This document shows positions 6,137 through 29,273 of a DNA stretch of 63,455 nucleotides, one piece after another. The first letter of the stretch is position 1. Each line of letters begins with the position of its first letter. The notes under the pieces are model-generated. The model was given only the letters and a program-made list of their open reading frames with translations, made no database searches and was not told the DNA's origin. The stretch comes from Minisyncoccia bacterium (GTDB lineage Bacteria > Patescibacteriota > Minisyncoccia > Phycocordibacterales > UBA1006). A program made the translations under genes and the position numbers. The stretch is from positions 1-63,455 of the forward strand of contig JBGATS010000005.1 in NCBI GenBank assembly GCA_044229075.1, in the 5' to 3' direction.

Positions 6137-6212
6137 GAATACAAGTGTATCATTTTTCTGGGTTCAATAGTAGGTATTGTTAGTTTTTTTGTTTTTATGA
6201 TAGAATAGTAAC

Positions 6213-7325: not shown

Positions 7326-7355
7326 GAGACATGACGTACACTATATTATAAATAT

Positions 7356-8111: not shown

Positions 8112-8131
8112 TACAACATCTTTGCACACTT

Positions 8132-8683: not shown

Positions 8684-8696
8684 TAATAAAAATTAT

Positions 8697-9182
8697 ATGA
8701 ATAAACAAAAAATAATAATTGGTATTATTGTAATAATCCTTATTGGTTTGGGAGGATATATGTATTTATCAGGAGGAATGAGGGAAACAGAAAAATCAAC
8801 ATCAACACTGGTTTCATCCAATACTGGAGATAACCCTGTTGCGCTAGGCGACTCAAAAGTAAATTCAATTGCTACTACTACTGCAGCTCAAGGTGAGATC
8901 GCTCAATTATTAAAGAGTGTAAATCAAATAAAATTAGACACACGAATTTTGCAAGATCCTGCATTTTTGGCATTAGTTGACACCACATTATCACTTCCTG
9001 ATACAGTGGTTTCTGGGCGCATTAATCCGTTCGCACGATCAGGAACTCTTGATGCAGCAGCTCCTGTGGTGAGCCAGATGAATACAGAAACCTTAGTAGA
9101 AACCACTACGTCATCGTCTTCAGAAGTTTCTGCGACTACAACACAAAACACTGTTCCAGTATCAACAAAACTAAAAAGATAA
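8697..9182 (+). CDS. Membrane-anchored protein in the PilP position, Ser/Thr-rich tail
   Basis: N-terminal TM. The GRINPFA motif resembles the R.PF motif of PilP-like proteins. Assigned mainly by synteny. Confidence 0.55.
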   Translation: MNKQKIIIGIIVIILIGLGGYMYLSGGMRETEKSTSTLVSSNTGDNPVALGDSKVNSIATTTAAQGEIAQLLKSVNQIKLDTRILQDPAFLALVDTTLSLPDTVVSGRINPFARSGTLDAAAPVVSQMNTETLVETTTSSSSEVSATTTQNTVPVSTKLKR

Positions 9183-9210
9183 GAAAATATATTTTGTGTT
9201 GTAGTTATAC

Positions 9211-9240
9211 ATAAAAAAGATACGCGAGTATCTTTTTTAT
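9211..9240. terminator. Bidirectional intrinsic terminator
   Basis: ATAAAAAAGATAC-gcga-GTATCTTTTTTAT between the convergent pil operon and dnaE. Confidence 0.75.
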
Positions 9241-9319
9241 ATATCTTTGTTATCAATGGTACAATATTTTAAATTGTCTTGTATAATAACCATAGGATTT
9301 TTCTTAGGTTTCAATTACA

Positions 9320-12300
9320 TTATTGCAATTCTTTTATCTGATCAACCATAAACGATTTTTCTCCATCACGATCAGAAATCTTTCCTTTCAAGAGGACAAG
9401 TTTTTCTGGAACACAGAATCTACGAACGTCTACATAGGTTTTTGGAAACACAACGGTATCAATAGAATCGGTAAGATCTTTGATTCGTACAAATGCCATT
9501 TTATCATTGTTTTTCTTTGTATAGATCTCTCGAACGTCTTCGATAATTCCTGCAATAACCGTTGTCGAGCCTACTAATCCTTCTGTTTTTAATTTGAAAA
9601 TACTCGAACCTGTTTTTTCCAGACGTTCCCGAAACTCGTCTAATGGATGCCCTGATACATATTGCCCAAGGAGCTCTTTTTCCCAGGCGAGACACTGCTG
9701 CTGGGTAACGCGTGGTGCATCGTGCATAACCAGTCGGGCGGTAGGAGCATCGTCAAAGTCTGCAAAGAGCGAATCGGAACCTTTATTTGTATCTTCCATG
9801 AGCGCTTTATGAAAAGCAAGAATCTCTTCAATATTCCCCAAGAGGTACCCACGGTCTCCCTGATGACCATTTTCAGTAGGAAGGGTATCGAGTGCACCAC
9901 ACATAATGAGCGCCTCCAGGGATTTTTTATTGACGTGTTTATGGAGTACCCGTTGTAACAAATTTTCTAATGTGAGATAGCGACCGTTCGTTTTCCGTTC
10001 ATGGATGATTGCTTTTCCGATTTCATTTCCAAAGTTTTTAATACTCCCTAATCCAAATCTGATTTTATCGGTAATCACACCTTCTTCTACCACTACGGTA
10101 AAATCTGAAAATGATTCATTGATATCTGGTGGCAAGATTTTGAATCCCATCCGTTTTGCCTCGTTAATCATTTCGGTCACGGTATCGAGATTGTCAGACT
10201 CGACGGTCAGTACCGCAGTCATATATTCCGCAGGATAGTTGGTTTTCAGATATGCGGTACGATAGGCGAGCAATGCATAGACGGCACTGTGTGATTTATT
10301 GAATCCATATGCTGCAAATGTTTCAATCATGTCCCATAATTCGTGGGCTACCTCTTTTTTCATACTGTTTTCAATACAACCATCGATAAAATGTCCCTTT
10401 TGTTTTGCCATTTCCTCGGGAATTTTTTTACCTACCGCTTTACGGAATTTATCTGATTCGCCACGTGTGTAGCCTGCCAGATCGGTTGCCATGCGCATGA
10501 CATCCTCTTGGTAGACGATAATTCCATACGTGTTTTTCAAGATTGGCTCCATACGGTCATCTGCGTATTTGATCTTGCTTGGGTCATGCTTTCGTTCGAT
10601 ATAATCAGGAATGAATGCCATCGGTCCAGGTCGATACAGTGACGCCATGGCGATCAGGTCTTCTAGGTTACTTGGTTTTAATTCCTTGAGCCATTTTTGC
10701 ATACCAGGTGAACCAAACTGAAATACACTGACTGTTTCACCGCGTCCGAATAATTCATATGTTTTATCATCGTCGAGCGGAATTTTTTCTACATCAATTG
10801 TGATACCGCGAATTTTTTGGATACGATCAACTGCCTCTTTTAAAATAGTAAGGTTTCGCAATCCTAGAAAATCGAATTTTGGTAGGTTGATGATTCCTTC
10901 GCGGTCACCAGAATACATGTCGTATTGTGTGATTACCTTACCTTCACCTTTTGGGTCGTACTGAACAGGTGAAAAATCATCCACGCGTCCTGTTGGTGAA
11001 ATCACCACACCAGCAGCGTGTACTGAGATGTGTCGGACGTTACCTTCGATTTTTTTTGCCATGTCGATAATTTCTCGAACTTGGTTATCAGTATCGTATA
11101 ACTCTTTTAACTCTGCCTCATCTTCGAGTGCCCGATCCAGTGTCATGGGGAATCCTTGGGATCCCATAGGAATCATTTTTGATACACGATCACCCAATGA
11201 ATAGGGAAACGACAATGCGCGTGCAACATCACGTACGGCACCACGCGCTGCCATGGTTCCAAATGTACCGATCTGTGCAACTGCTGCGTCTCCGTATTTT
11301 CCACGTGCATACGTAATAATGTCGTCACGGCGATTATCAGCAAAGTCCATATCAATATCGGGCAATGATGGTCGATCAGGGTTCAAAAATCGTTCGAACA
11401 ATAATCCGTATTTTAATGGATCGATATTTGAAATTCCAATCAGATACGCAACCAGTGATCCTGCTGCAGATCCACGGGTTTGATTAAAAATACCCATCTC
11501 TGTCGAGTTTTTCATGAAATCCGCCACACACAAGAAATAACTTGGGTAGCCCTTGTCAGAAATTGTTTTTAATTCGTATTCAATACGTTCGCGAACACTG
11601 TCTGTTAATTCCATGTCGCGTGTTTCCAGCCCTGCGTACACCATTGCGCGCAATACCTCGTCATAGGTAGTATTTTTATCAATAGGGAAACTTGGGAAAA
11701 ACCATGATGTTGTATCAATTTCGAGATCTACCAAATCTGCAACCTTTTTGGTATTTTCGATTGCCTCTGGATAATCTGTAAAAACCTCACACGCTGTTTT
11801 TTGATTAATGAACGACCAATTACCATCCATTTTCATTCCTGATCCACCCGTATTGATTTTTAATAACGTATCATGCGCAGGTGCGTCATCCACACACAGA
11901 TAATGTGAATCCCAGGTCCCTACAATGGGCAAATCTACCTCACGTGCAATGCGGACAATGTCAGGTAGGATAGATTGATACCACGCCATATCGGGCGCCT
12001 CTGTATGATTCATGATTTCTACGAACACATGTTCGCGACCGACTGCGTCACAGTATAACTGCAACAATTCTTTTGCCTTGTCGAAATATTTTTCCCGAAC
12101 GAGCGAAACAAATTCACTGCCTGGGCAACCAGATAAAATAATCAACCCATCACCGTATTGTTTTAACAGATCTTTATCAATACGTGGTTTGTAATAGAAC
12201 CCTTCTAGGTTTGCAGCAGACACCATTTTCATCAGATGTTTATATCCAGTCAGGTTTCGGGCCAAGATTGTTAAATGATATCTCTTTGTATCAATGGTTG

Positions 12301-12550
12301 GATCACGATCAAAACGAGTACGGTTTGCAACGTACACCTCGCACCCAATAATTGGCTTGATATCATGTTTTTTACATTCCTTGTAAAAATCGATAGCTCC
12401 ATACATAGCACCGTGATCGGTCAGGGCAAGTGCAGGCATACCAAATTCCTTGGCTTTTTTTACCAAGTCTTTTACCTTTGACAGTCCGTCCAGTAATGAA
12501 TAGTGGGAATGGACGTGTAGATGGATAAAATTGTCGTGGTGGGTACACAT
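9320..12550 (-). CDS. dnaE: DNA polymerase III alpha subunit
   Basis: PHP domain HLHVHSHYSLLDG, RGSAAGS, PDIDMDF, YGFNKSHS and a C-terminal OB fold. Start is probably the ATG at 12550. Confidence 0.97.
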   Translation of the reverse strand: MCTHHDNFIHLHVHSHYSLLDGLSKVKDLVKKAKEFGMPALALTDHGAMYGAIDFYKECKKHDIKPIIGCEVYVANRTRFDRDPTIDTKRYHLTILARNLTGYKHLMKMVSAANLEGFYYKPRIDKDLLKQYGDGLIILSGCPGSEFVSLVREKYFDKAKELLQLYCDAVGREHVFVEIMNHTEAPDMAWYQSILPDIVRIAREVDLPIVGTWDSHYLCVDDAPAHDTLLKINTGGSGMKMDGNWSFINQKTACEVFTDYPEAIENTKKVADLVDLEIDTTSWFFPSFPIDKNTTYDEVLRAMVYAGLETRDMELTDSVRERIEYELKTISDKGYPSYFLCVADFMKNSTEMGIFNQTRGSAAGSLVAYLIGISNIDPLKYGLLFERFLNPDRPSLPDIDMDFADNRRDDIITYARGKYGDAAVAQIGTFGTMAARGAVRDVARALSFPYSLGDRVSKMIPMGSQGFPMTLDRALEDEAELKELYDTDNQVREIIDMAKKIEGNVRHISVHAAGVVISPTGRVDDFSPVQYDPKGEGKVITQYDMYSGDREGIINLPKFDFLGLRNLTILKEAVDRIQKIRGITIDVEKIPLDDDKTYELFGRGETVSVFQFGSPGMQKWLKELKPSNLEDLIAMASLYRPGPMAFIPDYIERKHDPSKIKYADDRMEPILKNTYGIIVYQEDVMRMATDLAGYTRGESDKFRKAVGKKIPEEMAKQKGHFIDGCIENSMKKEVAHELWDMIETFAAYGFNKSHSAVYALLAYRTAYLKTNYPAEYMTAVLTVESDNLDTVTEMINEAKRMGFKILPPDINESFSDFTVVVEEGVITDKIRFGLGSIKNFGNEIGKAIIHERKTNGRYLTLENLLQRVLHKHVNKKSLEALIMCGALDTLPTENGHQGDRGYLLGNIEEILAFHKALMEDTNKGSDSLFADFDDAPTARLVMHDAPRVTQQQCLAWEKELLGQYVSGHPLDEFRERLEKTGSSIFKLKTEGLVGSTTVIAGIIEDVREIYTKKNNDKMAFVRIKDLTDSIDTVVFPKTYVDVRRFCVPEKLVLLKGKISDRDGEKSFMVDQIKELQ

Positions 12551-12612
12551 ACTATATCTATCATACACTGAAAAACGTGTTTGCAGAAAGCGGAAAAGGA
12601 TTGTGGAAATAC

Positions 12613-12640
12613 TTGACAAATATTCTGTATATGATATAAT
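12613..12640 (+). promoter_or_regulatory. Consensus sigma70 promoter with extended -10
   Basis: TTGACA-N16-TATAAT with TG at 12632-12633, upstream of 12729-13313. Confidence 0.7.
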
Positions 12641-12728
12641 AGTACCAAGTTAGTACATTGTCAAAAAATTAGTTTGGTGACTACAGATTCTAACTATTTT
12701 GGAATTTTTAGTCACCAAATTAAATAAA

Positions 12729-13313
12729 ATGAAAAAATTAGTAAAAATAACTGTATCAGTAATTGCAATATCTTTAATAAGTTATTTCGTGTATGGATAT
12801 TACCAAGAACAAAAAGCAGAACAACAAAGAATAGAACAAGAACAAAAAGCAGAACAACAAAGAATAGAACAAGAACAAAAAGCAGAACAACAAAGAATAG
12901 AACAAGAACAAAAAATAACGAAATTATTTATATCTCAATTAAATAAAAAGAACATAAACAATCTTCCATTGAGTGAATCTTATCCTTTTAGTGAACAAAA
13001 GTATAAGATTAATAATAATTGTATATGGCAATTTTATGTAAACGATAAATTGCTACATACTTTTATAGCAGATCTTGCTAATAAAAATATTGGTAAAAAT
13101 AAATATAACAATAAAAATTCAGATCTGCTTATTGGTATTGCTTATGTTGGATGGGCTGATGCATATTGTTTATATGATTTTTCACTCGAACTTCATAGAC
13201 CAAATAAAGAAGATTTCTCTGTTGAAAAACATTACTATTATAATCTTTTTGAACCTAATACTTTTATTCTAAACAAAGAAATGATGGATAATGCTGGAAT
13301 TGTTCTTTGGTAA
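12729..13313 (+). CDS. Hypothetical membrane-anchored/secreted protein with a QEQKAEQQRIE coiled-coil repeat
   Basis: AT-rich ORF with an N-terminal hydrophobic helix and an 11-aa repeat. Start is probably the ATG at 12729. Confidence 0.7.
   Translation: MKKLVKITVSVIAISLISYFVYGYYQEQKAEQQRIEQEQKAEQQRIEQEQKAEQQRIEQEQKITKLFISQLNKKNINNLPLSESYPFSEQKYKINNNCIWQFYVNDKLLHTFIADLANKNIGKNKYNNKNSDLLIGIAYVGWADAYCLYDFSLELHRPNKEDFSVEKHYYYNLFEPNTFILNKEMMDNAGIVLW
12804..12914 (+). repeat. Perfect 33-bp tandem repeat, 3.3 copies
   Basis: Unit CAAGAACAAAAAGCAGAACAACAAAGAATAGAA three times plus a partial copy. Confidence 0.95.
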
Positions 13314-13377
13314 AATTAAAAATAACTCATTTAGAGACTACAATCCGTAGTCTCTTTTTTTATGTTAAAATAATATT

Positions 13378-14004
13378 ATGAAATCTAGTCAGAAAAAGAG
13401 AATGCAGTATATCATCGGCATCGACGAAGTCGGTCGTGGACCGATCGCAGGGCCAGTGACGGTGTGTGCGTTTGCGATCCGACAGGTTGATATTCAAAAA
13501 TTTTCACGTTTTGCAAAAAAACTCGGCATTACAGACTCAAAAAAACTTACCGAGAAAAAACGCACTGAACTTTCAAATATACTATGTACTATGCAAATTA
13601 ATGGTGAATGTGATTTTTCGATTATGATGACATCTGCACATATTATTGATCGACAGGGAATTAGTGTGGCGATTAAAATGGCTTTACAAAAATCACTTGA
13701 TGATGTGTGTACTCGACAAAAAATTTCACCAGATCAGGTTTTTGTTTTCTTGGATGGCAGTTTATACGCACCAACGGAATATGGTCATCAGGAAACTATT
13801 ATCAAGGGCGATGGATTGATTCCTGTGATTTCTGCTGCATCAATCCTTGCAAAGGTACATCGCGATCGTTATATGACTGCCACGGCAAAAAAATATCCAG
13901 GATATGCATGGGAACAAAATAAAGGATACGGAACGCGACTGCATTATCAAGGTATTAAAAAACAGGGAATTACGAAACTACATAGGAAGAGTTTTTTGGA
14001 TTGA
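13378..14004 (+). CDS. rnhB: Ribonuclease HII
   Basis: GIDEVGRGPIAGPV, DSKKL, LDG, KGD...ISAASILAKVHRD, NKGYGT. Confidence 0.95.
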   Translation: MKSSQKKRMQYIIGIDEVGRGPIAGPVTVCAFAIRQVDIQKFSRFAKKLGITDSKKLTEKKRTELSNILCTMQINGECDFSIMMTSAHIIDRQGISVAIKMALQKSLDDVCTRQKISPDQVFVFLDGSLYAPTEYGHQETIIKGDGLIPVISAASILAKVHRDRYMTATAKKYPGYAWEQNKGYGTRLHYQGIKKQGITKLHRKSFLD

Positions 14005-15975: not shown

Positions 15976-16368
15976 AACACTGAGAAGATCAATTCTCAGT
16001 GTTTTAATATATTTAGGAGGGTTTTCTTGTTTGTATTATGAAAGATTTTATAGTGCATATGTAATATATCTCTTGGTGTACTCAAGAGGATTTTTATTCC
16101 CAACATCTCGATGCTCTGCATTAGGGTTTTTCATTTGACTAATATTAATTTTTATATTTTGTTTTATATTTTACTTATATTTTATTTTGTATTCATATAT
16201 ACTGAAGAGTACCTTATACCAGTGAGTAGGCTGAATATAAGATTTATTAGTAACTTTTTTATAATCATTTGTTTATTTAGGACATAGTCAGATTATTGTA
16301 AAAAATTTTTGTTATGATTATTTTAAAAAAAAACAAAAAGTTCCCATATATTTTTTCAATGTGTCTCA

Positions 16369-19300
16369 TTGATCGTATTGGGCATTGTAATGGGTAATAG
16401 TGGAATTGCTGCATTAATAGGTTTTATTCCGTTAACAGAAGCATCATTCACTCAGAATAATTCAGCAGGAACATGGAAAGTTGATTTTAATAATAATCAA
16501 CAAGGACTTGCTCCTGATGGTGCTCCATTACGAGAGAATATTACCATCGATACTTCTGCTGGTATTGCAAAAATAACCCCTACTTTCTCATCTGGGTATT
16601 TTAATACTGTTGCAGTCTCTCCAAATTCTTTTTCTGCCTGGGACAGGATAGTCGTTGATGCTGTATATGCTACTATTTCTGATATCCATATTTCACTCTA
16701 TACGTGTACAAATACTCCTATTCTAGGATTTCAAAATATGCTCTTAGGAGTTGATGGATCTATTAACATTTCAGGACTTCCTGTTAGTAATACGTGTATT
16801 AAGGCACGAGCGGATTTAACTGATAGTGGTGGTCCTCGCCCAATAATAAACGATATTAAAATAACTTGGGTCCCGCTTCCTGTGTTTCTTTTAAGTCATA
16901 GCGCAAATACGACGCGCCCAGTCGGTGATGGTGTTGTATATTCTATTAATTACTCTATCTCATATGTTGATGATAGTGGTGTTATAGTATGGGTCCCGCT
17001 CCCACGTTCATCAAATGGAACAGTTACCAACTATACGACGTCCTACGGAGTTACACCTGACCCATCATTTGTTTCTGCTTCCAGTGGCGGGCAATATTCA
17101 GCAACAGCAATAACTGTGGCAGGAGTGTCTATACCTGCACATTCAGTATATTGGAATTTAGGTTCAGTTCCTGCCGGCCGTTCAGGAACATTAACGTACG
17201 AACTATCGACTCAAAATAATTGGCAACAAGGAATACAATATCACTCACAAGCGTTTATTGATTCACTAGCAGCTAATCAAGTTGTTTCTGATAGTGACCT
17301 CATTACGGCTGGTAATCAACCAGTACTAACAACACTTACCGCAACCCCACTTCCCTCAATAGAAAAAGAAGCATTAGGGGTTATTCGTATTGGAGATGAA
17401 AAATTTGTTGCTAATTTTGGTTCTTATACTAATACGGTTACCTATCGTATTAAAATAAAAAACGGGAATGCACAGAGTGCTCGTGAATCAATTTGGAACC
17501 CAAGTATTACAGATGATCTTTCAAATATTTATACACGACTTTCCACGGTATGTGGTATTACAGTTCCTTCATCTCGAGTTACTCCAAACAATGGTGGTAT
17601 AAAGATAGGGAATACTATTGTGTGGGATACGCCAACAGGTGACTTAACTCATTTGTCTGCAAACCAGGAAAAAATTGTTACATATACTATTGACTACACA
17701 GGATGCCCACCCGACCCATCGCGTACGTATATAAATACTGCGACCCTCTCTGCTGATAATATTGTTGCTATTACAGATCAGGAAATTATAAAAATGGGAG
17801 TTCCAACAGGTCCTAGTGGTGTATTTTCTAAAAATGGACCTGATATGAATTATGGTGCTGTTAAATATCATAACGATAGTTATAATTACACATTGAGCGC
17901 CTCTAATGATGGTTCTGTGGTTATTGGAGATATTATTATGGCGGATAAAATTGACCCACTTCTTGATCTTGTTTCTGTGTCTACTACTTCAGGGTCAGGG
18001 GCTATTACCTACTATAATACAGGAGGGGCAGGAAACCCTGTAACAACTCCGCCAGTATATACCATTGTTCCAGGGGTTGGGATTACTGGTGTTGGATGGA
18101 CCACTACTAAACCGTTGAGTGGTACCAATTGGATAATAACGTATATTCCATGTGTCGATTCAGCGTTATTCCCGGCACCCTCTGGTAACACGCAATGTTA
18201 CCAAAAACCAAATCAAGTTATTAGTACAATTACAGTACAACTAAAACAACCTGTCGCAGCTTGTTTAGAGTACACCGTACCTAATACTGGTGCCTTTTGG
18301 ATTCATGCAGTGTCTCCCTCACCTACAAACAATACAATTAATCCTACAGCACCCCTTAATTTTACTGACGGACTTGTCACAAAAGTCCTCCCTCGCCTAG
18401 CCTCATTTTCTACGGAAAGTGAATTGACTGCCCCGAACACAGCCCATGTTACTGATGAGATTACTTATACTCTACAAATAAAAAACACAGGCGTAGATAC
18501 CGCGTATAATGTTTCTGCAAATATACAGATTCCGACAGCAACCGTAAATGGTATTTCTGGTGTTCCGTTTGATTTTGTAAATTCTATCGGAGGAACATTG
18601 ATAGCAACAGGATTACCTAATACAGCAACAATTCAGCTCGGCACAATCCCCGAAAGTATTACAAAAAACGTACTTATCACACTCCGACCACCAAAAGGAA
18701 TTTCAAATCTACAAATTGCAACCATGAATGTAACAATTTCTGCAAGTGATGATAATAATTGTAAACCAATTACTACATCTCTTTCAAAATCAGTGACTGT
18801 TACATCAGAGCCGTTACTTACTATTACAAAAAATCGGAAAGAATCACTCATACCGTCTGGTGGCGATATTCATTACGCTATAAATTTTGAAAGTACTGGA
18901 AATGCACCGACCACTAGTTCTTATATTGTTGATTTTATTCCAACAAATACTATTTTTAAATATGCATACACCACAGGAACAGATTCTTCGGGGGCAACAT
19001 TTAATTGTCCTGCATGTAAGATACTTTTTTCTGACTCTCTTCCATCACTACCACCCGGTACGTCTCCCTTCGACGTACTCACGCTAAACGATATTACGCA
19101 ATCATTTAGCTTGGGAACAGAAATTTCTCCAGGTGTATGGACGTCACCATTTGGTTCAATGACGCATTGGGTAGCTTATTTACTTGATGATCCAGCAATA
19201 AGTACTCCTATGGTTGTTACCGGTCGTACAGGTACCGTTGGACTTACACTTACTAATGATTTTGATGGAGTTGGACCAGGGGTAATTGGATCGCCTGTTA

Positions 19301-22300
19301 GTGACGTAATTACTAACGAAGCAGCAGTTTTTACAAATGAACTTCTTCAAGCAATTGGGAACCAGGTCCAAACTACAATTGCTCCTGCACCTGGGCTCTT
19401 TCTCGAAAAACGTGCTGATACTCAAACTATTGCAGGGGGACAGTCATTTAACTGGCTTGTTGATTTGTATAACGATGGTTCAGGACCTGATTCTGTAGTT
19501 ACATTAACTGATACTATGGATCCATTGGGCGGAACGCTCCAAGGGGTGTATTTCACGTGGAATCCTGTAGCCATTGGTAATGGTGCGCCAGCAGGAGAAG
19601 TCAATATTACAGCAAATCCAAATGTCACACTTTCTGCAGCTCCAAGTGGTGTTATCACAACAACAATGGATCTCACAGGATATCGTGGTGGAAACCTTAA
19701 CCCACTCGAAGGGGGAATACTTCGTTTCGAAGTTCTCACGGCGACAGGAATTACAACAGGAATGAATTTTGTAAACGATATTTCAGGCACGTACACTGCT
19801 GGCGCTATTACAGAGACTGCTACAGCAAGTCATCGTGTACCTGTTGCCAATCCTGATCTCTGGATACGAAAAATTGTTGATAATCAATCACCTCTACCAG
19901 GAACTCAGGTAGCATTTACACTTACTCTTTCTAATGAGGGGAACCACAATGCTCCCAATGTGTCTGTTTCTGATACATTACCATTAGGTATGTGTTTTGT
20001 TCCTGGGTCAACGAGCCTCATCTCTCCATTGTCTGCTGGATACAGTATTTCAGCACCGATCGTGACAGGCAACTGTACGACAATACCTCATGTGCTCACG
20101 TGGAACAATACTCTTGTGACACCACTTGGTACTACTATACTACCTGCAAATTCTCCTGATATTAGTTTCTCATATCGGGCAACGGTTTCAGCTGGAGTAT
20201 CTTCAGGGACAACACTTACTAACGGTGCAACAACATCAACGACATTAACAGAAGACACAGTATATATGAATGCGTCGAACCAAAGTGTGACAACACCACT
20301 CCCTGATCCATATGTACGTAAATCTGCACCACCAACAGCTATTCCTGGTGATCCATTAACCTATATAGTTACGTATGGTAATGAATCAGTACAGCCTGTA
20401 ACCAATACCTACATCATCGATACACTACCAGATTTCGATACTGATGGAACAGCCGACATCACCCTTGTGTCTATTTCTGGAACAGGTGGTGAATCATTCT
20501 ACTATCATAGTGCTCCAGTATCGGTAACACCGCCAGTATTCGACCCTGCATCACCACTCACAGGTGGGTGGACAGCTGCACCTGGTCCCGTGGTTTCATA
20601 CATTGCTATCCGTAAAACAAATCTCGCTGGACTCGAGGGTCCACGCACTGTCACAGTGAGCGCAACACTCATTGATCCTGATACAGGATTACCTGTACCT
20701 ACAGGTATCAGTCTCGTGAATAGAGTAACTATTACTGGTGCAGGTGATAGTGATAGTACAGATAACACAGCCAGTACAGAAACTCGCACTCCTGGCTTTG
20801 ATTTAACGATCACAAAAACAGGAACACGTACAGGTGCTGTTCCTGGACTTGCTCCTGGAGGATCAAATACCTATACACTCACATTCCAAAACCAAGGAAC
20901 GGTATCAGTTTGTGATGTTCATGTACATGACACATTGGGGAGTAATCTTTCTTTTGTAGGGACAGGACATAATTTTACATCAATTGCCCTGACCGATATC
21001 GATGGGAACACTATCACACCGAGAGACCCTCTCGGAACATTGATTCTTACACCAGGGAATCCGACCGTTACCATTGCCGGTAATGTATTAACAGCAGATC
21101 TGGGATCTGGTCTGTGTATACCGCCAGGCGCGAAACAAAGCTTTGAAGTCTATGCAAAAACTGCTCCCACAACGACCGATGGAACTATCGTTACTAATAC
21201 TGCCGAAGTCTACACAACAGGTTCAGGCGTAGAACAAATTCTCGAAAACAATACAGCCACTGTCCAAACATCTGTATGGCGTGCTGATGTCGTTGCGACG
21301 AAAACAGGTGCTGTGACCCCAAGTGGATCAACAACTCTTGCAAATCCAGGTGAAACAATTGCCTATACCATAGAATACGACAATATCGGTAATGCTGATG
21401 CTGAGAATACCATCCTCACGGATACTATACCGTCAGAGGTGTGTTTCGTCTTGGGTAGTATCTCTGCAATTCCTGGAACAACAACACAGTATTCAAATGA
21501 TAATGGAACAACATGGACATATATCCCAGTGGGTGCTCCTGGAGCACAGGATTGTAATGTAAAGAATTTTAGAATTCTCTGGAATACACCACTACCTGCC
21601 CCTGCAAGTTTTGACGGAGAGGGCACCCGTACTGACTTCATGGACATTGGTTTGACAAATACAAGAGAAACAATGGTTTCAGGAAACGAAGTTATTCAAC
21701 TGGCTGACGCTCCACCGTTTCAAATAGTTTCTCCACAACCAGCAACTACTCACACCCCACTAGGTCAACAGGTTACCACGTTCGGTGATTTTAATAATGA
21801 TAGTAAAATGGATGTTGTTGTCAGTAATTCGTTCTCTCTTCCAACTACAGGGTACCGAGCTTTGTTATTTCTTGGTAATGGCGATGGAACATTTTTACCA
21901 GGTCTACCTATTGATACCGTAACAAATCGTGTTGATGTTGATAACGGCGATTTTAATGGTGATGGAAACCTTGATTTGGTATTTTCAGGGTGTTCAGGAG
22001 GTACTTCGTGTTTATCAGGTCCTGGTGCAACATCTGCGCGATATTATTATGGTAATGGTGATGGAACATTTGGTTCCGGGAACGTATTACCCGGTACTGC
22101 AACGGGGCGTGCGGTTTCTGTTGCTGATATGAATAATGATGGGCGATTAGACATTGTCTTAACTAGTAATACACGAGTTTATCTTAATAATGGATCTGGA
22201 TTTACTCTTGCGTATACAAATGTGTATTCGGGAAGCGAACTTGATATTAATGATATTGATGGTGACGGGGATAATGATATCGTAGTTGTATCCCTAAACT

Positions 22301-25300
22301 CAGGCACAGGTATTATCTATTATAATAATGGAGCTGGAAATGCTTTTACATTGTATACATTACCTGCCACATCTGCAACTAGGTCTGTACCTCAATTAGT
22401 AGACCTTGATCATGATAATGATCTAGATATAGTTTTGTCAGACTCATCAGTGTCGCCTGGAAATAATTGTTATTTTATTAATAATAATGATGGAACCTTT
22501 CAATCATGTGTTGCGTATAGTAATACATCAATTCGTGCAGGTACTATTGCCGACTTTAATCAGGATGGATACAATGATTATCTTTCGTCAATTCAAAGTA
22601 GTACAACCAGTCGTCTCTTTCTAGGAGAATCCGGCTCTATCCCAATCTCTGCATCTTCACACACAACAATTACTTGGCCAAGTGTTAATAATGGTATTCA
22701 AAATTGGAGATATAATCAAAAGGATATCAATGGAGATGGGAAAATCGATGTTGTTGTTCCAAATAATACAACAGGAATCTCGGTGGCACTTAATCGATTT
22801 AATGAATATGTTGCCTCTGGGTCATATACAACTACAATTGTTGCACCCACAGCAGTCACATCATGGAACAAACTCCTCCTAAATGCTGATGTTCCGACCG
22901 ATACAGCACTGACATATACAATCCTCCCATCATCATGTACAGGAACACCGTACGTCAATGCCCAACCAGCACCACAGGGATATGTGGATATTTCACACAT
23001 ACCCAACACTGTGACATCACTGTGTCTACGTATGAATTTTGCAACAACAAATGTAAGCAAGACACCGGTACTCGACGCATGGAAAGCAACCTACACATCA
23101 CCGATAAAACCAAAATTCACCTACAATGCAGTGGTGAAAACATCACCACAATTAGGTGTGATACCAAACAGTGTACAAATCAGTACAACAACCATTGAAA
23201 TCAATACAGGGAATAACGATGCGATCAAAGAACATCAGCTCATTACATCTGACGTCTCTGTAAAGAAAACAGTGACAAAAACAGCAGCACTAGCAAGTGA
23301 TACATTAACCTATACATTAACATACAAAAACGAAGGACCAAGTACTGCAAATGCAGTCGTTTTGACCGACACTCTCTCATCACTCGTTACAGCACCATCG
23401 AGCATCGTTGTCTCTGCGACCTCTGGACCCGCACCTGTATGTACTCACAGTGCTGGAGTCATTATCTGTGATAACGATGGAAATCCACTGACACCATCGA
23501 CATGGAATCTCGCAGTGAATGATACAGGGACCATTACGATTACTGTCGATATTCTCGGTACCGTGTCTGCTGGTGATATTGTGACGAATACTACAGCTAT
23601 TACAACACTAACCTATCAAATCATAACTACGAATGATTCGGACACGGTGAACACAGTGATTGGGTCATATCCGAACCTCTTCATAGAGAAAACCGGCCCA
23701 ACACGAGCCAATGTTGATAGAGATATCATCTACACCATCGAGTATGGTAATAACGGGAACACACTAGCTCCTGATGTTACTCTTACAGATACTTTTGATA
23801 GCAACACAACCTTTGTTTCAGCGGTATCTACTGACGGAACCATGCCAGCATGTAACAGTACAGCAACGACGATCACATGTGGTGGCGCAGGATATAGTCT
23901 ACCAGTAGGGGCAAGTCACACACTCACAGTGACACTTCACGTGAACAATGATTTTAACCTACTCATTAATGAAGAAATCATTGACAACGATGTAGCCATT
24001 ACTACAAGTATTCCTGAATCAAGTATTTCTGATAATGCTTCTACGTACGATATCCCTGTGTACCCATTTGCACTATCAAGCATCTCTGGATATGTGTATA
24101 TCGATGCCAATGGCAGCATAACAAAAGATCCTGTGGAAACAGCACTACCAGGAATTACCCTTAACTTGGTAGGGACGGATATTTATGGTGCTGCAGTATC
24201 ATTGTCGACCGTGACGAATGCATCAGGACAGTATATCTTTTCAGGACTTAACCCTGGAACCTATACCGTCACACAGACTCAGCCAGGAGGATATGATTCT
24301 ACAGGGGCATCTGCCGGTACAAATCTCGTCCCAGCAGGGAACAATGGAACAGTGTCTGGCCCTAACATGATTGCATCAATCACCGTTGGAGAGGGTCATA
24401 CATCGCTTGAAAACAATTTTGGTGAAGCATCAGGTACAATAGGTAATCAAGTCTTTTACGATCAAAATACAAATGGTACGTTCGATCTAGGCGATACAGG
24501 ACTTGCTGGTGTACGTATTCTTTTGATTACTGATACGAATAATAATGGACTTCAAGATACAGGTGAATCAGTACGTGTTGCCTACACTGATGCAGTAGGA
24601 AACTATCAATTCACGAATCTTCCATTTGGAAATTATATTACAAAAGTTTCTGATACAGCAGGTGTTCTCAGCAGTTATACACCCGTGTCAGGAATCTCAA
24701 CGGGCGGATTAGATAATGATGCAAAAAATGTTTCAGGATATACGATGAATCTCTCTGGGACAAATCCATCAGTACAGAGTGCTGATTTCGGATATACACT
24801 GACACCATTTACACCGGGAACTCCTGGAACGATTGGAACAAAAGTCTTCTCTGACTTTAATGGTAACGGTATCCTCGACGGTCTTGATACAGGTATACCA
24901 AACGTATCTGTTGATTTGTATCGTGATAACGATAGTTCAGGGACAGTAACATTTGGCGACACATTCCTCGGTAGACTCTTTACCGATGGATCAGGGGACT
25001 ATCTCTTTGGTGGACTCACTCTCGACCGCAGGTATGTCGTCCGTGTATCAGATACACTTGGTGATCTTGCTGGATATATCAATACACTCGGTACTCCACA
25101 TACAGATAACCATGGACAAAACCCTCTCGCATATCCTGTCTACCTACAAACAGGAGTGAATGAATTTACGATTATAGCAGACTTCTCATACCAGCCACCG
25201 TACCCAGATCTTAAGATTACAAAATCACATGTCGGCCTCAATGTACAAGGGAGTACGGCAACATACAACATTGTAGTAGAAAACAAATCCACTGCATCAG

Positions 25301-28300
25301 GCAATGCAACATCACCTATTCGTGTAACAGATACGCTCGTTTCAGATCTGACGTATGTCTCTACATCAGGAACGAATTGGGATTGTAGTGCAACGGTTGC
25401 ACCACTTGTCGACTGTACCTATACAGGAGCATATCCAGTAGTACCAGGAACCGTATTACCAACCCTTACGATTACAGCAACGATTTCAGGAACTGCTGTA
25501 CCACCCCTTACGAACACAGCAAGTGTTTCAACACCTCTTGAGCTTCCTCATGTACTTCTTGATAATACTGCAAGTGATCCTGTAACCTATGTTGCAGCAT
25601 CAGCTGATGGTGTGATCGGTACGACGATATGGATTGACGAGGATCGTGATGGAGAGCGTGACGTGTCTGAACCAGGACTTTCTGGTATTATTGTCAGACT
25701 ATACAGCGATCTAGACGGCAATGGGTTACCTGATGATACGAATAGCGATATGGTTATTGATATAAATGACGAAGTTGCCACCGCTCAGATAACAGATTCA
25801 AATGGAGAATATCTCTTTTCTGGCCTTGACCGTGATGACTTGGTGAATGGATATTATGACTATCTCGTAACTGTTGATACTGTGGGTATCCCTCCTGGAT
25901 ATACACATACGACAGGAACAGTTGCGACTGACAATTTCTCTCAAGTGGAGACAAATTATCCAGTACGACTTTCAAATATTAATCCATCGAATATTACAGC
26001 AGATTTCGGGTATGCACCGACAATGCCTGACCTTGCAATTACAAAAACTCATAGTGGCACAGTACATCAAGGAGATACAGTAACATTTACGATAGCAGTA
26101 TCAAATGTTTCTGGTGCGGGTGATGTTCCCGTAACGAACGATATTGTCGTAACGGATACTATGCCTATAGGGATGACACTCATTCCATCAGCAACAGTAA
26201 GTGCAACGAATGCTATCAGTAGTTCATGGAATTGTAGTACTTCGACAGCTACATTGCTTCGATGTATTTCAAATGCAGGACTTGTAGGTGGTGCATCACT
26301 TCCAAATATTGCTGCCGTTATTGAAGTCAATCCTGTGTCAGTACCGACAAGTATTACAAACACTGCTACCGTATCAACAGTTCGTGAAACAGGGCCATCA
26401 GCAATCCTTGCGAACAACACAGTCAATGACACAGTAGATGTTGTATTAACAAATACAGGAAGTATTGGAAATCTCGTATGGGATGATCATAATGGAAACG
26501 GTCATTATGATATAGGGGAAGACCCTATTGGTGGAGTTCATATATACCTCTACCGTGATGTCAACGAAGACGGACTGGTTGATGCAGGAGATATTCTCAT
26601 TGATACACAAATCACCAGTACAACTGTAGGAAGTATTGGAACTTATCAGTTCGTTAATCTGGAAAGAGATCTCGGCCTCGGTTATTATCCATATATTGTA
26701 CGAGTAGAAACAACTGATATTACTGCGATTAATACACTCTATACACAGACGATCGGTATACCAGGAACAGATAACGAATCTCAGGTTCAGGACTATCGTG
26801 TAACACTCAACAGTACTAATATATCTGACCAAACAGCAGATTTTGGATTTAAATTACCTCCTGATCTCACACTGGTAAAAACTATCAGTGGGACGAGCAC
26901 TGCCTATGTTGGTCAATCAATGACATTTCTTCTCGAAGTTACCAATATTGGAGGGGGTACAACCAATGGATCCGATATTATCGTGACTGATACATTGCCT
27001 AGCAACCTCAGTTTTGTGAGCACTGGTACGAGCCCAGAATGTAATGCAGTAGGTCAAGTCGTAACTTGTACACTCACTGGTATCCCTGCGGTACTTGCTC
27101 GTTTAACAGGATCACACACCTTTACCATTGTCACCAGAGCAAATGCAACAGGACCTGTTGCAAACTCTGCGACAGTTACAAGCGGTGGAATATCAGGAAG
27201 TGTTTCATCACTTGCGAGCGTGGGAACAATTCCTCCTACAACGCTTTCAATTACCAAAACAGGAACACCTCTTTCAGGACTTATAGGTACTGCAGTTACT
27301 TTTACCGTAACTATTGAGAACACTGGACTTGGAAATACTGTAGGAACATATTCTGTAGCTGATACTCTGGCTACAGGACTTGTCTTTGATGCAGCAGATT
27401 CTGATACACGATGTACCGCTGTAGGACAAGTAGTCACCTGTGCTGATACAGCAGTACTTGCTCCAGGAGCATCTACATCATTTGATATCAAAGCAACTAT
27501 TGCAGCTGCTGGGTCATATGAAAACACCGCAACAGTTTCTGGTGGCAGTGCAATAAGTGCAACTTCAAATACTGTTACCGTTGTCCGTACAGCTCAACCA
27601 AGTGGAGGCGGTGGCGGGGGTGGTGGAGTTATCGGAACATGGTGCCCATCAGGTCAAACATGGAATGGAAGTCTTTGTGTAACAACACCTAAACCTGTAA
27701 CACCAGTACTTACACCCACTGTACCGAAGTCTCCAAGTAGTGTACTGAGCATATCTACATCACTACGCAAATCACGTCTCGGTCTCCTTTGGCAGACAGG
27801 GTCAGATACATTCGGTTCATGTGGGTATCCAGTTCTTACGACACCAATTAAGCTTGGAAAAACAAACAAGGTTTCCGACGTGAAATTCCTCGAACAATTC
27901 CTTAATACATATGAAAATGAAAAACTTACAGTGAATGGTATATATGAACAAGAAGATTTTGAAGCGGTAATACGATGGCAAGAAAAATATGCATCTGCAG
28001 TACTTGCCCCTTGGGGTGTAGTAAAAGGTACTGGATATGTGTACAAAACAAGTCTTGCCCAAATTGCACGTCAGTACAAAACAGTATGTACTAGCGATGA
28101 CACGGCGAAACCTAAAACAGATCTTCCAAAGGATGTACCCGTTCCAGTTGTTGCTGATATTGAAATCACAAGTACTCCAACCAATATCACAGGTACTCGT
28201 ATCAGAATTCCAGCTATTGGACTCGACAAGATTGTATACACAACGGGAACGTTAAAACAAGTAAAAGACAACATTTGGCATTCGCCAGATACAGAAATGC

Positions 28301-28617
28301 CTCATGAGGGTGGAAATACTGTCTTTGTAGGACACCGTTACGTAAACCTCGTTCGTGATGCGAAGGGGAATGTTGTCCAAATCCCACCAAAACCAGGAGT
28401 CTTCTTTGAATTACCAAGTGTTCCTGTAGGTTCCGATATCTACGCGACAGATTCTGGTCGTGAATATCATTACCGTGTGACACAAAGTTTCGAAGTAAAG
28501 CCCGATGAAATTTGGGTAGAGGATGAAACAACAAATCCGACACTTACACTTTATACCTGTACGCCACTGTATACTCATAACAAACGTCATGTAATACGTG
28601 CAGAATTAGTGAAATAA
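16369..28617 (+). CDS. Giant (4082 aa) surface adhesin: DUF11-like and SdrD-B-like repeats, FG-GAP propeller, PG-binding-like domain, C-terminal sortase domain
   Basis: About 16 DLxITKT...YTLT.N...TNTA modules, 5 G.IG..V..D.N modules, 7 DFN.DG..D repeats (about 21775-22790), a poly-Gly linker, VKFLEQFLN...VIRWQEKY (PGBD-like), then RIRIPAIG...GHR...TLYTCTP...KRH (sortase). Confidence 0.9.
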   Translation: MIVLGIVMGNSGIAALIGFIPLTEASFTQNNSAGTWKVDFNNNQQGLAPDGAPLRENITIDTSAGIAKITPTFSSGYFNTVAVSPNSFSAWDRIVVDAVYATISDIHISLYTCTNTPILGFQNMLLGVDGSINISGLPVSNTCIKARADLTDSGGPRPIINDIKITWVPLPVFLLSHSANTTRPVGDGVVYSINYSISYVDDSGVIVWVPLPRSSNGTVTNYTTSYGVTPDPSFVSASSGGQYSATAITVAGVSIPAHSVYWNLGSVPAGRSGTLTYELSTQNNWQQGIQYHSQAFIDSLAANQVVSDSDLITAGNQPVLTTLTATPLPSIEKEALGVIRIGDEKFVANFGSYTNTVTYRIKIKNGNAQSARESIWNPSITDDLSNIYTRLSTVCGITVPSSRVTPNNGGIKIGNTIVWDTPTGDLTHLSANQEKIVTYTIDYTGCPPDPSRTYINTATLSADNIVAITDQEIIKMGVPTGPSGVFSKNGPDMNYGAVKYHNDSYNYTLSASNDGSVVIGDIIMADKIDPLLDLVSVSTTSGSGAITYYNTGGAGNPVTTPPVYTIVPGVGITGVGWTTTKPLSGTNWIITYIPCVDSALFPAPSGNTQCYQKPNQVISTITVQLKQPVAACLEYTVPNTGAFWIHAVSPSPTNNTINPTAPLNFTDGLVTKVLPRLASFSTESELTAPNTAHVTDEITYTLQIKNTGVDTAYNVSANIQIPTATVNGISGVPFDFVNSIGGTLIATGLPNTATIQLGTIPESITKNVLITLRPPKGISNLQIATMNVTISASDDNNCKPITTSLSKSVTVTSEPLLTITKNRKESLIPSGGDIHYAINFESTGNAPTTSSYIVDFIPTNTIFKYAYTTGTDSSGATFNCPACKILFSDSLPSLPPGTSPFDVLTLNDITQSFSLGTEISPGVWTSPFGSMTHWVAYLLDDPAISTPMVVTGRTGTVGLTLTNDFDGVGPGVIGSPVSDVITNEAAVFTNELLQAIGNQVQTTIAPAPGLFLEKRADTQTIAGGQSFNWLVDLYNDGSGPDSVVTLTDTMDPLGGTLQGVYFTWNPVAIGNGAPAGEVNITANPNVTLSAAPSGVITTTMDLTGYRGGNLNPLEGGILRFEVLTATGITTGMNFVNDISGTYTAGAITETATASHRVPVANPDLWIRKIVDNQSPLPGTQVAFTLTLSNEGNHNAPNVSVSDTLPLGMCFVPGSTSLISPLSAGYSISAPIVTGNCTTIPHVLTWNNTLVTPLGTTILPANSPDISFSYRATVSAGVSSGTTLTNGATTSTTLTEDTVYMNASNQSVTTPLPDPYVRKSAPPTAIPGDPLTYIVTYGNESVQPVTNTYIIDTLPDFDTDGTADITLVSISGTGGESFYYHSAPVSVTPPVFDPASPLTGGWTAAPGPVVSYIAIRKTNLAGLEGPRTVTVSATLIDPDTGLPVPTGISLVNRVTITGAGDSDSTDNTASTETRTPGFDLTITKTGTRTGAVPGLAPGGSNTYTLTFQNQGTVSVCDVHVHDTLGSNLSFVGTGHNFTSIALTDIDGNTITPRDPLGTLILTPGNPTVTIAGNVLTADLGSGLCIPPGAKQSFEVYAKTAPTTTDGTIVTNTAEVYTTGSGVEQILENNTATVQTSVWRADVVATKTGAVTPSGSTTLANPGETIAYTIEYDNIGNADAENTILTDTIPSEVCFVLGSISAIPGTTTQYSNDNGTTWTYIPVGAPGAQDCNVKNFRILWNTPLPAPASFDGEGTRTDFMDIGLTNTRETMVSGNEVIQLADAPPFQIVSPQPATTHTPLGQQVTTFGDFNNDSKMDVVVSNSFSLPTTGYRALLFLGNGDGTFLPGLPIDTVTNRVDVDNGDFNGDGNLDLVFSGCSGGTSCLSGPGATSARYYYGNGDGTFGSGNVLPGTATGRAVSVADMNNDGRLDIVLTSNTRVYLNNGSGFTLAYTNVYSGSELDINDIDGDGDNDIVVVSLNSGTGIIYYNNGAGNAFTLYTLPATSATRSVPQLVDLDHDNDLDIVLSDSSVSPGNNCYFINNNDGTFQSCVAYSNTSIRAGTIADFNQDGYNDYLSSIQSSTTSRLFLGESGSIPISASSHTTITWPSVNNGIQNWRYNQKDINGDGKIDVVVPNNTTGISVALNRFNEYVASGSYTTTIVAPTAVTSWNKLLLNADVPTDTALTYTILPSSCTGTPYVNAQPAPQGYVDISHIPNTVTSLCLRMNFATTNVSKTPVLDAWKATYTSPIKPKFTYNAVVKTSPQLGVIPNSVQISTTTIEINTGNNDAIKEHQLITSDVSVKKTVTKTAALASDTLTYTLTYKNEGPSTANAVVLTDTLSSLVTAPSSIVVSATSGPAPVCTHSAGVIICDNDGNPLTPSTWNLAVNDTGTITITVDILGTVSAGDIVTNTTAITTLTYQIITTNDSDTVNTVIGSYPNLFIEKTGPTRANVDRDIIYTIEYGNNGNTLAPDVTLTDTFDSNTTFVSAVSTDGTMPACNSTATTITCGGAGYSLPVGASHTLTVTLHVNNDFNLLINEEIIDNDVAITTSIPESSISDNASTYDIPVYPFALSSISGYVYIDANGSITKDPVETALPGITLNLVGTDIYGAAVSLSTVTNASGQYIFSGLNPGTYTVTQTQPGGYDSTGASAGTNLVPAGNNGTVSGPNMIASITVGEGHTSLENNFGEASGTIGNQVFYDQNTNGTFDLGDTGLAGVRILLITDTNNNGLQDTGESVRVAYTDAVGNYQFTNLPFGNYITKVSDTAGVLSSYTPVSGISTGGLDNDAKNVSGYTMNLSGTNPSVQSADFGYTLTPFTPGTPGTIGTKVFSDFNGNGILDGLDTGIPNVSVDLYRDNDSSGTVTFGDTFLGRLFTDGSGDYLFGGLTLDRRYVVRVSDTLGDLAGYINTLGTPHTDNHGQNPLAYPVYLQTGVNEFTIIADFSYQPPYPDLKITKSHVGLNVQGSTATYNIVVENKSTASGNATSPIRVTDTLVSDLTYVSTSGTNWDCSATVAPLVDCTYTGAYPVVPGTVLPTLTITATISGTAVPPLTNTASVSTPLELPHVLLDNTASDPVTYVAASADGVIGTTIWIDEDRDGERDVSEPGLSGIIVRLYSDLDGNGLPDDTNSDMVIDINDEVATAQITDSNGEYLFSGLDRDDLVNGYYDYLVTVDTVGIPPGYTHTTGTVATDNFSQVETNYPVRLSNINPSNITADFGYAPTMPDLAITKTHSGTVHQGDTVTFTIAVSNVSGAGDVPVTNDIVVTDTMPIGMTLIPSATVSATNAISSSWNCSTSTATLLRCISNAGLVGGASLPNIAAVIEVNPVSVPTSITNTATVSTVRETGPSAILANNTVNDTVDVVLTNTGSIGNLVWDDHNGNGHYDIGEDPIGGVHIYLYRDVNEDGLVDAGDILIDTQITSTTVGSIGTYQFVNLERDLGLGYYPYIVRVETTDITAINTLYTQTIGIPGTDNESQVQDYRVTLNSTNISDQTADFGFKLPPDLTLVKTISGTSTAYVGQSMTFLLEVTNIGGGTTNGSDIIVTDTLPSNLSFVSTGTSPECNAVGQVVTCTLTGIPAVLARLTGSHTFTIVTRANATGPVANSATVTSGGISGSVSSLASVGTIPPTTLSITKTGTPLSGLIGTAVTFTVTIENTGLGNTVGTYSVADTLATGLVFDAADSDTRCTAVGQVVTCADTAVLAPGASTSFDIKATIAAAGSYENTATVSGGSAISATSNTVTVVRTAQPSGGGGGGGGVIGTWCPSGQTWNGSLCVTTPKPVTPVLTPTVPKSPSSVLSISTSLRKSRLGLLWQTGSDTFGSCGYPVLTTPIKLGKTNKVSDVKFLEQFLNTYENEKLTVNGIYEQEDFEAVIRWQEKYASAVLAPWGVVKGTGYVYKTSLAQIARQYKTVCTSDDTAKPKTDLPKDVPVPVVADIEITSTPTNITGTRIRIPAIGLDKIVYTTGTLKQVKDNIWHSPDTEMPHEGGNTVFVGHRYVNLVRDAKGNVVQIPPKPGVFFELPSVPVGSDIYATDSGREYHYRVTQSFEVKPDEIWVEDETTNPTLTLYTCTPLYTHNKRHVIRAELVK

Positions 28618-28745
28618 AAATCACCCTACGGGTGTTTTTTATTTCAAGGAGATTGCAAGCTTTTTGATACTTGAGAAGCTATTGCTTTTTATTGACAAAT
28701 ATGGTATTATGAAACAAAAAATTGTTTCACAAAAAATATAAAAAA

Positions 28746-29273
28746 ATGGTAAAAAGTATTAAAAAAATTCAATCATTCAAAGAATTTTTTAGAGTTCCGC
28801 ATGGAACCGAATTAAAAAATTTTTTACGAAGAATGGTAATTCTTCTACGAGATCATCCCAACCTGGGATATCAGGTTTTACAAGATTGCCAATTAATTAT
28901 TAACAATCTAGTTGCAGAGTACCGAGAAGAAAAGCCGTTTCTTGGGAAAAATCAATTCATTGCTGTTATAGGCAATATGGCAATTCCAGAAGATGTTGCA
29001 CGGGAAATTGCTCGGGAACTGGGATTAACAAAAAGTAATATGAGATTTTTCACTGGGTATAAGTTATCCAATGAAGATATTAATACAATTTCGGCAGACA
29101 ATTGCTTAGTAGTCATTATGGGACCAATACCTCATAAAACTATTGGAAATTTTGAACAGACTTTCCAATACAAAATTATAAAAGCAAAAACTAAATCAAA
29201 AGAATTAAAAATTACAAAAGATTCTTTCAGAGAAAGTTTATACGGAGCCTTGGAAAAAATAAAAAATAATTAA
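28746..29273 (+). CDS. Hypothetical protein (AT-rich cassette)
   Basis: Open ORF flanked by hairpins. The C-terminal alpha/beta region contains GPIPHK and ELKITKDSF; family not assigned. Confidence 0.7.
   Translation: MVKSIKKIQSFKEFFRVPHGTELKNFLRRMVILLRDHPNLGYQVLQDCQLIINNLVAEYREEKPFLGKNQFIAVIGNMAIPEDVAREIARELGLTKSNMRFFTGYKLSNEDINTISADNCLVVIMGPIPHKTIGNFEQTFQYKIIKAKTKSKELKITKDSFRESLYGALEKIKNN

Follow-up and report, generated by a model that had tools for sequence, protein, structure and literature searches.

The contig JBGATS010000005.1 of a Minisyncoccia bacterium (assembly GCA_044229075.1), whose 63,455 nucleotides are called here the window, encodes a giant adhesin of 4,082 amino acids (aa) that ends with a putative peptidoglycan-binding (PGB) domain followed by a sortase catalytic domain. 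This sortase fusion is real, transcribed and conserved. Sortases are usually separate membrane-anchored transpeptidases of monoderms, and full-text literature searches gave no account of an adhesin or a peptidoglycan-binding domain joined to a sortase catalytic domain. The PGB-sortase cassette is a novel arrangement of an enzyme and anchoring system that were already known, with its own small clade in Patescibacteria. Its favoured role, for which a probability of about 0.55 is proposed, would be that of a wall-docked cassette for covalent anchoring, in cis or in trans, at the wall of the producing cell itself.

The adhesin (P0001) is encoded by one unbroken open reading frame (ORF) with a TTG start and a stop codon at 28615-28617 (see Table 1 for the coordinates of all features). 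A Pfam search with the whole protein detects nine DUF11 domains, now called CLIPPER (E 1.9e-81), five SdrD_B domains and the DUF7507/CLIPPER_2, CARDB, FG-GAP and Sortase domains. CLIPPER has been described as a stalk domain with isopeptide bonds (bioRxiv 10.1101/2025.04.25.650565). The protein combines the traits expected of a fibrillar adhesin, i.e., a predicted signal peptide, tandem stalk domains and a C-terminal anchor. The related genomic loci that carry names all belong to Patescibacteria (Saccharibacteria, Paceibacterota, Nomurabacteria and Dojkabacteria), which indicates that the adhesin comes from a bacterium of the candidate phyla radiation (CPR)/Patescibacteria, as the initial annotation had proposed.

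The sortase domain and its continuity with the adhesin

The Pfam family Sortase (PF04203, MEROPS C60) covers aa 3945-4081 over the full length of the profile (1-125/125), with a score of 80.6-85 bits for a cutoff of 26.6 (E 4.5e-24 with the C-terminal piece and 1.1e-22 with the whole adhesin). The generic NCBIfam model sortase_fam (TIGR01076) is also passed (42.2 for a cutoff of 39.35). Assignment to one of the classes A-F gave no NCBIfam model near its cutoff, the best being class E (39.8 bits for 160), while the class C and D models reach 35-37 bits for cutoffs of 160-165. Two AlphaFold2 runs predict a sortase beta-barrel with a predicted local distance difference test (pLDDT) value of about 85-98 for this domain. 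Furthermore, all 50 matches listed by Foldseek against the PDB are sortases of classes A, C, D or E. The top structures are the SrtA enzymes of B. anthracis (2kw8; TMt 0.71, root mean square deviation 2.0 A) and L. monocytogenes (5hu4; TMt 0.77).

The catalytic residues lie exactly where the initial annotation had placed them, and the same holds for the Gly8 run located upstream. They are His3989 (GHRY, codon 28333-28335), Cys4064 (TLYTCTP, 28558-28560) and Arg4073 (28585-28587), and all three align with those of stand-alone sortases. The full-length Pfam match, the invariant His, Cys and Arg and the confident model of a sortase fold make it plausible that this intact-looking domain is catalytically competent. 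The membrane anchor typical of sortases, although not strictly a defining trait, is lacking, as no transmembrane (TM)-like segment occurs after aa 25 of the adhesin.

The continuity of the frame between adhesin and sortase can be followed in independent sequences, since many wastewater and activated-sludge runs contain the last 1.75 kb of the gene. Two DNA contigs, X5 (8.2 kb, from another study's wastewater) and X11 (1.3 kb), span the stalk, the PGB domain and the sortase with 19-24 substitutions and zero gaps. In the same way, the metatranscriptome contigs X2 and X3 cover most of positions 27000-28750 with substitutions only. The 22 coding substitutions comprise 9 synonymous and 13 non-synonymous changes and no stop. 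A stop or frameshift separating the adhesin from the sortase was looked for between aa ~3700 and 3945 in these independent contigs and none was seen, so that the in-frame fusion read from the sequence is upheld.

The JGI contig L040 (Ga0558120_00501, 241 kb) carries an orthologue that is colinear with aa 1-4082. The two proteins are 56% identical over aa 1-2746, 73% over aa 2794-3730 and 79% over aa 3756-4082, so that conservation is highest in the C-terminal cassette. The L040 orthologue is annotated as three genes (2761, 974 and 335 aa), the last of which includes the sortase. This is the only point in favour of an artefact of assembly or annotation, in which a sequencing error would have joined a separate sortase gene to that of the adhesin. 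However, frame breaks are widespread on L040, where IF-2, ClpB and the giant adhesin are each called as several genes. As many housekeeping genes are split in this way and as the G-rich stretch that encodes polyG holds one break of the adhesin gene, indel errors are the likely source of the breaks and the L040 gene calls should not be trusted. Moreover, the 335-aa piece has no start-proximal TM helix. With four other runs of the same species gap-free across the region, no stops, a colinear orthologue and a terminator immediately after the stop codon of the adhesin, an artefact or frameshift is ruled out.

The PG_binding_1-type module and the PGB-sortase clade

From its N-terminal side, the cassette comprises Gly8, a Cys-loop, a Pro-rich spacer, a PG_binding_1-type domain, a linker and the sortase. 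The initial annotation had mentioned a PG-binding-like domain and a Gly8 linker upstream of the sortase; both are present, and the domain, though divergent, appears to be real. The copy of the adhesin gives no direct match to PF01471 at E<0.1. Its homologues P0009 and P0016 pass this model (31.8 and 25.2 bits for a cutoff of 23), and P0002 and P0003 carry precomputed PF01471 matches. A profile of the family matches the solved PG-binding domains 5tv7 (6.5e-5) and 7rum (1.6e-3). With a cleaner alignment, AlphaFold2 predicts a helical domain (pLDDT 87-98), whose fold has weak matches (E>0.01) to the PG-binding parts of phage endolysins. Taken from profiles and models, these data suggest that aa ~3807-3921 are a divergent PG_binding_1 domain and a putative peptidoglycan binder.

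An exhaustive HMMER search with the last 331 aa of the adhesin retrieved 4,686 proteins at E<=1e-3. The family set studied here consists of 153 proteins, i.e., the adhesin, the matches of a first search and the best 150 listed of these 4,686. Most of them (139/153) match the PGB region (aa ~3807-3921) and not the sortase. The PGB module is found in one to three tandem copies, nearly always at the extreme C-terminus, in proteins ranging from 90 to 6,588 aa whose N-terminal parts are unrelated. To judge from this distribution, it is a generic C-terminal wall anchor of Patescibacteria surface proteins.

Of 123 family proteins, 43 have a run of at least four Gly ahead of their PGB anchor, and every PGB-sortase protein that covers this region is among them. 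PolyG as a sortase-specific feature is unsupported, since most of these 43 proteins have no sortase. The run usually takes the form of a recurrent module, S-Gly(5-11)-S-[RK][RK], in many cases followed by the small Cys-bracketed element CxDPxAxNY...CxY and by GEVLGA. The residues located just before Gly8 vary within the species. At position 27596 (codon 3743), four other runs (2 RNA and 2 DNA) have a C instead of the A of the window, which changes Gln3743 to Pro. Thus, the window allele reads RTAQPS, as against RTAPPS in each of the four other runs. The relaxed sortase-motif pattern xPx[S/T]G, which is used nearby in the phylum, is matched by APPSG and not by AQPSG.

Among the matches listed, PGB and sortase occur together in four proteins: the adhesin, P0005, P0009 and P0016. 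P0005 corresponds to the C-terminal piece of the orthologue on L040. The other two, P0009 with 615 aa and P0016 with 703 aa, are much smaller and consist of a signal peptide, an immunoglobulin-like passenger, Gly5-9 with basic residues, the PGB domain and the sortase. Their genes (loci L122 and L124), found in two different samples, are syntenic orthologues that adjoin ruvA and are convergent with it; this suggests a conserved single-copy gene in its lineage. The association remains rare: 117 PGB-bearing ORFs were found in 120 fetched loci and only that of the L040 orthologue includes a sortase (1/117). Searches with short degenerate patterns, which are not exhaustive, revealed no further PGB-sortase fusion in 37 loci from GTDB genomes (0) or in 80 metagenome loci (0). 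The adhesin-sortase is nonetheless not a one-off, as it has an orthologue and belongs to a small clade.

Maximum-likelihood analysis of 36 sortase domains groups the four that are linked to PGB in a single clade (UFBoot/SH-aLRT 99/98) with a long stem, which sits among stand-alone Patescibacteria sortases. The identity of the adhesin sortase to those of Saccharibacteria and Paceibacterota is 28-37%. The stand-alone relatives (185-253 aa) all have an N-terminal TM helix. An insertion of 12-13 aa after the catalytic His is found in P0001, P0005, P0009 and P0016 and is absent from all stand-alone relatives and from P0004, a giant protein described below. His, Cys, Arg and TLxTC are invariant in the four members of the clade, despite only 33-42% identity between lineages. 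At the level of sequences, this specialised clade with its long stem and shared insertion beside His argues for a selected new function. Another arrangement is seen in P0048 (369 aa), which carries tandem sortase domains; the catalytic Cys is replaced by Ser in the first (TLFTST) and retained in the intact second one (TLFTCTP).

Proposed anchoring mechanism and rival explanations

Homologous giants show what usually stands at the place of the cassette. P0158 (4,157 aa) has the same CLIPPER/SdrD_B build, with 41% identity over the N-terminal 700 aa, and ends with a textbook sorting signal, i.e., LAKTG, a TM helix and KRREDSK. The metagenomic P0004 (2,568 aa, seven CLIPPER domains) has at its end LAKTG and two TM helices with a basic loop between them, followed by a sortase, which groups in the tree with stand-alone enzymes, outside the PGB clade. 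Encoded at 6001-13707 of locus L038 and also found in L039, in JGI and Logan assemblies, P0004 is a natural protein in which a sortase substrate and a membrane sortase are joined head to tail; its JGI label merely mentions a sortase-family protein. Small proteins encoded near stand-alone sortases of Saccharibacteria carry LVNTG (L001, 10523-11287), TPSTG (L010, 4681-5166) or IPDTG (L031, 9316-9927), each followed by a TM segment and basic residues, and are probably the cognate substrates of the adjoining enzymes. The presence of stand-alone TM sortases along with LAKTG/xPxTG-TM-basic proteins indicates that the lineage runs an ordinary sortase system.

The adhesin of the window has no C-terminal LPXTG-TM-basic sorting signal, as had already been noticed, its sole TM-like segment being aa 1-25. 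Regex scans found no canonical cis donor motif between its stalk and its sortase, and the LPXTG-like strings that it contains (5 for 1.7 expected) all lie inside the FG-GAP/stalk region. The PGB-sortase cassette is located at the position that the sorting signal occupies in the homologous giants.

The other end of the protein bears on its orientation. The signal peptides of three homologues diverge and their sequences become conserved from a small-x-Ala site on (TEA/SFTQNN, AEA/SFAQNN and SYA/SYLQND, the slash marking the predicted cleavage site). Such an onset of conservation, right at the start of the predicted mature protein, is what one would expect if the signal peptide is cleaved off, and we infer that the adhesin loses its signal peptide in this way. 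Joined to the role of the PGB module as a generic C-terminal anchor, the conserved cleavage site suggests that the sortase would be cell-proximal and not at the tip of the fibre.

According to the scheme favoured here, the adhesin would be exported via Sec and its signal peptide cleaved. The PGB domain would then dock the C-terminus in the wall of the producer, with the conserved N-terminal region projecting outward, and the sortase would work within the wall layer, away from the membrane. The cassette could in this way substitute for the LAKTG-TM-basic sorting signal of the homologous giants. As favoured sub-mechanism, the sortase would process the chain to which it belongs, or those of adjacent copies, at or close to the [S/T]-polyGly junction. 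In cis, the outcome would be a stalk amide-linked to the wall and a PGB-sortase fragment that remains wall-bound. Alternatively, the sortase may act in trans, with classical xPxTG/LAxTG-TM proteins produced by the same cell as its substrates. Cis action is favoured here; the [S/T]-polyGly junction is the one sequence feature common to all PGB-sortase proteins that cover the region. This case is weak; trans action on classical substrates and cis action are about equally possible. The initial annotation had proposed either self-anchoring or self-polymerisation. The former is a reasonable reading, given the LAKTG signals that P0158 and P0004 bear at this place. The latter has no support, no pilin-type donor motif having been found between stalk and sortase.

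Several observations weigh against the wall-docked scheme. No LPXTG/LAXTG-like donor motif is conserved between stalk and sortase. The junctions differ (AQPSG/APPSG in the adhesin, VENSG in P0009, TGTTG in P0016) and the last two have no proline. PolyG is common in PGB proteins that lack a sortase and may be only a hinge. AlphaFold2 leaves polyG and the linkers disordered (pLDDT 32-39 for the RTAQPS-Gly8 segment) and the active site empty, with nothing docked in it, a result that is uninformative about docking. Finally, it is not obvious how a sortase located in the wall would reach lipid II, which usually serves as nucleophile.

A stronger version of wall anchoring would be a membrane-independent, self-contained device, in which the wall-docked sortase cuts its own or a neighbouring chain at [S/T]-Gly(5-9) and transfers the stalk onto mature peptidoglycan. 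This version is doubtful. If true, [S/T]-Gly(5-9) would be a non-canonical sorting site that needs no TM segment, and the same chemistry, requiring neither membrane nor lipid II, could in principle act on the wall of a host.

It is unlikely that the sortase domain is something other than a transpeptidase. It could then be a hydrolase, by which the adhesin is shed or processed, or a module without catalysis that was kept after gene fusion for structure or binding. The lack of a recognisable cis donor motif would be compatible with such roles, as would the long branch of the clade, its insertion beside the active site and the absence of any class A-F model near its cutoff. Furthermore, the first domain of P0048, with Ser for Cys, indicates that pseudo-sortase domains occur in the lineage. 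However, the catalytic residues and TLxTC are kept in all four clade members across divergent lineages, and the cassette is the most conserved part between orthologues.

The initial annotation also considered a covalent link to the host, and this part of it is not supported. In such a scenario, the N-terminus would be kept as a membrane signal anchor and the distal PGB-sortase would bind host peptidoglycan and couple the adhesin to the wall or surface proteins of the host. In its favour, cultivated Patescibacteria are epibionts (PMC11623550), the ligand of the PGB domain is presumptive, the sortase end of the adhesin has no membrane tether, and translation from TTG gives a signal peptide whose n-region is not basic, which makes its processing uncertain. 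Against this stand the A-x-A-type cleavage site, conserved in three homologues along with the mature sequence that begins there, and the PGB module, which ends more than 100 unrelated surface proteins and, as an anchor should, is in most cases the last element of the chain. In addition, the homologues bear wall-sorting signals at their C-terminal end, and the adhesin offers no acyl-donor motif that could be ligated to an amine of the host. A host-directed ligation is thus very unlikely.

Lastly, a polymorphic-toxin-type effector, in which a giant filamentous protein would bring a C-terminal peptidoglycan-targeting enzyme into the wall of a competitor or host, has a similar architecture (long repeat protein, PG-binding domain, C-terminal enzyme), but is hardly credible and was rejected: the C-terminus is the most conserved and not the most variable part, no downstream gene is common to the window and the L040 locus and hence no immunity candidate exists, the PGB module alone ends most family members, and sortases are not known to be toxins.

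Comparison with known systems and other features of the window

To our knowledge, every sortase characterised so far is tethered to the membrane and encoded apart from its substrates, and the nucleophile is lipid II or a pilin lysine. The adhesin sortase shares its fold, the His-Cys-Arg residues and TLxTC with the stand-alone sortases of Patescibacteria and, more distantly, with the classes E (LAXTG), A, C and D of monoderms. It differs from the stand-alone enzymes by the lack of an N-terminal TM anchor, in place of which a PG_binding_1-type domain is found, by its location at the C-terminus of a 4,082-aa protein, by the 12-13-aa insertion and by its separate clade (99/98). Like the adhesin, P0004 is a giant CLIPPER/SdrD_B protein with its own sortase domain at the extreme C-terminus. 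However, P0004 retains a canonical sorting signal and two TM helices, whereas the adhesin has neither a sortase-adjacent TM segment nor a canonical motif. With the PGB wall anchors of Patescibacteria, the adhesin shares a homologous domain (40-60% identity), its position and the context of polyG and Cys-module. The difference lies in what follows the first PGB copy, i.e., a sortase in the adhesin and further PGB copies or nothing in the others.

Two further systems can be compared. L,D-transpeptidases (YkuD) can carry PG_binding_1, an example being the E. coli enzymes through which Braun lipoprotein becomes attached to peptidoglycan. They share with the cassette the logic of a PG-binding domain and a Cys-transpeptidase in the wall compartment, with a protein-peptidoglycan linkage possible, but their fold is unrelated, their acyl donor is a stem peptide and they are not fused to a protein substrate. 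Engineered self-cleaving sortase-LPXTG fusion tags show that a sortase is able to process a motif in its own polypeptide. These tags are artificial and carry a canonical LPXTG, whereas the natural cassette conserves no such motif.

The cassette would thus be a sortase tethered to the wall by a PG-binding domain, built into an adhesin that it possibly anchors and bearing an insertion at its active site. If active, it would place sortase chemistry outside the membrane context and would give CPR bacteria, whose surface biology is almost unknown, a way of fixing very long adhesins to a thin wall. A compact self-ligating module of this kind could also be a gain for protein engineers. If the enzyme is merely a housekeeping sortase that acts in trans and happens to be carried by an adhesin, the cassette would be an unusual but modest variant of domain architecture.

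Table 1. Position of the adhesin gene, of the parts of its product and of adjacent sequence features in the window.
Feature	Position	Strand	Details and evidence
Out-of-frame upstream ATG (16314) and A9 tract (16325-16333)	16314..16368	+	Sequence inspection
Giant fibrillar-adhesin gene	16369..28617	+	4082 aa, TTG start; Pfam domains
Hydrophobic N-terminal signal peptide, aa 1-26, predicted site TEA/SF	16369..16446	+	Hydrophobicity; position conserved in P0157 and P0158
FG-GAP beta-propeller region within stalk	21775..22790 (approximate limits)	+	FG-GAP_3, 4 stretches (E 4e-23); FG-GAP, aa 1913-1938
Gly8 run, aa 3746-3753, after RTAQPS	27604..27627	+	Sequence; other runs compared
Small Cys-Cys loop C3759...C3770, predicted beta-hairpin	27643..27678	+	Sequence; AlphaFold2
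Divergent PG_binding_1-type domain (putative), aa ~3807-3921, bracketed by C3818/C3907	27787..28131	+	Family, profile, model
Pro/Thr-rich PGB-sortase linker, predicted disordered	28132..28200	+	Alignment; AlphaFold2
Sortase catalytic domain (predicted), aa 3945-4081	28201..28611	+	Pfam Sortase PF04203; AlphaFold2; Foldseek
Clade-specific 12-13-aa insertion right after catalytic His	28348..28383	+	Alignment; AlphaFold2 beta-hairpin
Intrinsic-terminator-like hairpin (28622-28634) and T-run immediately after stop	28622..28644	+	Sequence inspection

Both ends of the gene deserve a comment. The adhesin terminates with RAELVK, directly before the stop codon. Upstream of the TTG start, the ATG at 16314 lies in a different frame, which runs through A9, and a change of one nucleotide would fuse it with the giant ORF (MIILKK(K)TKSS...TEA/SF). 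The A9 site is covered by the source-sample contig alone, in which A9 is unchanged. The N-terminus fused in this way would be a signal peptide with a basic n-region, resembling that of the orthologue P0157.

No second sortase or PGB domain is found elsewhere within the window. Its remainder consists of housekeeping genes, i.e., dnaE, rnc, mnmA, uvrB, rpoBC, dnaG and rpoD.

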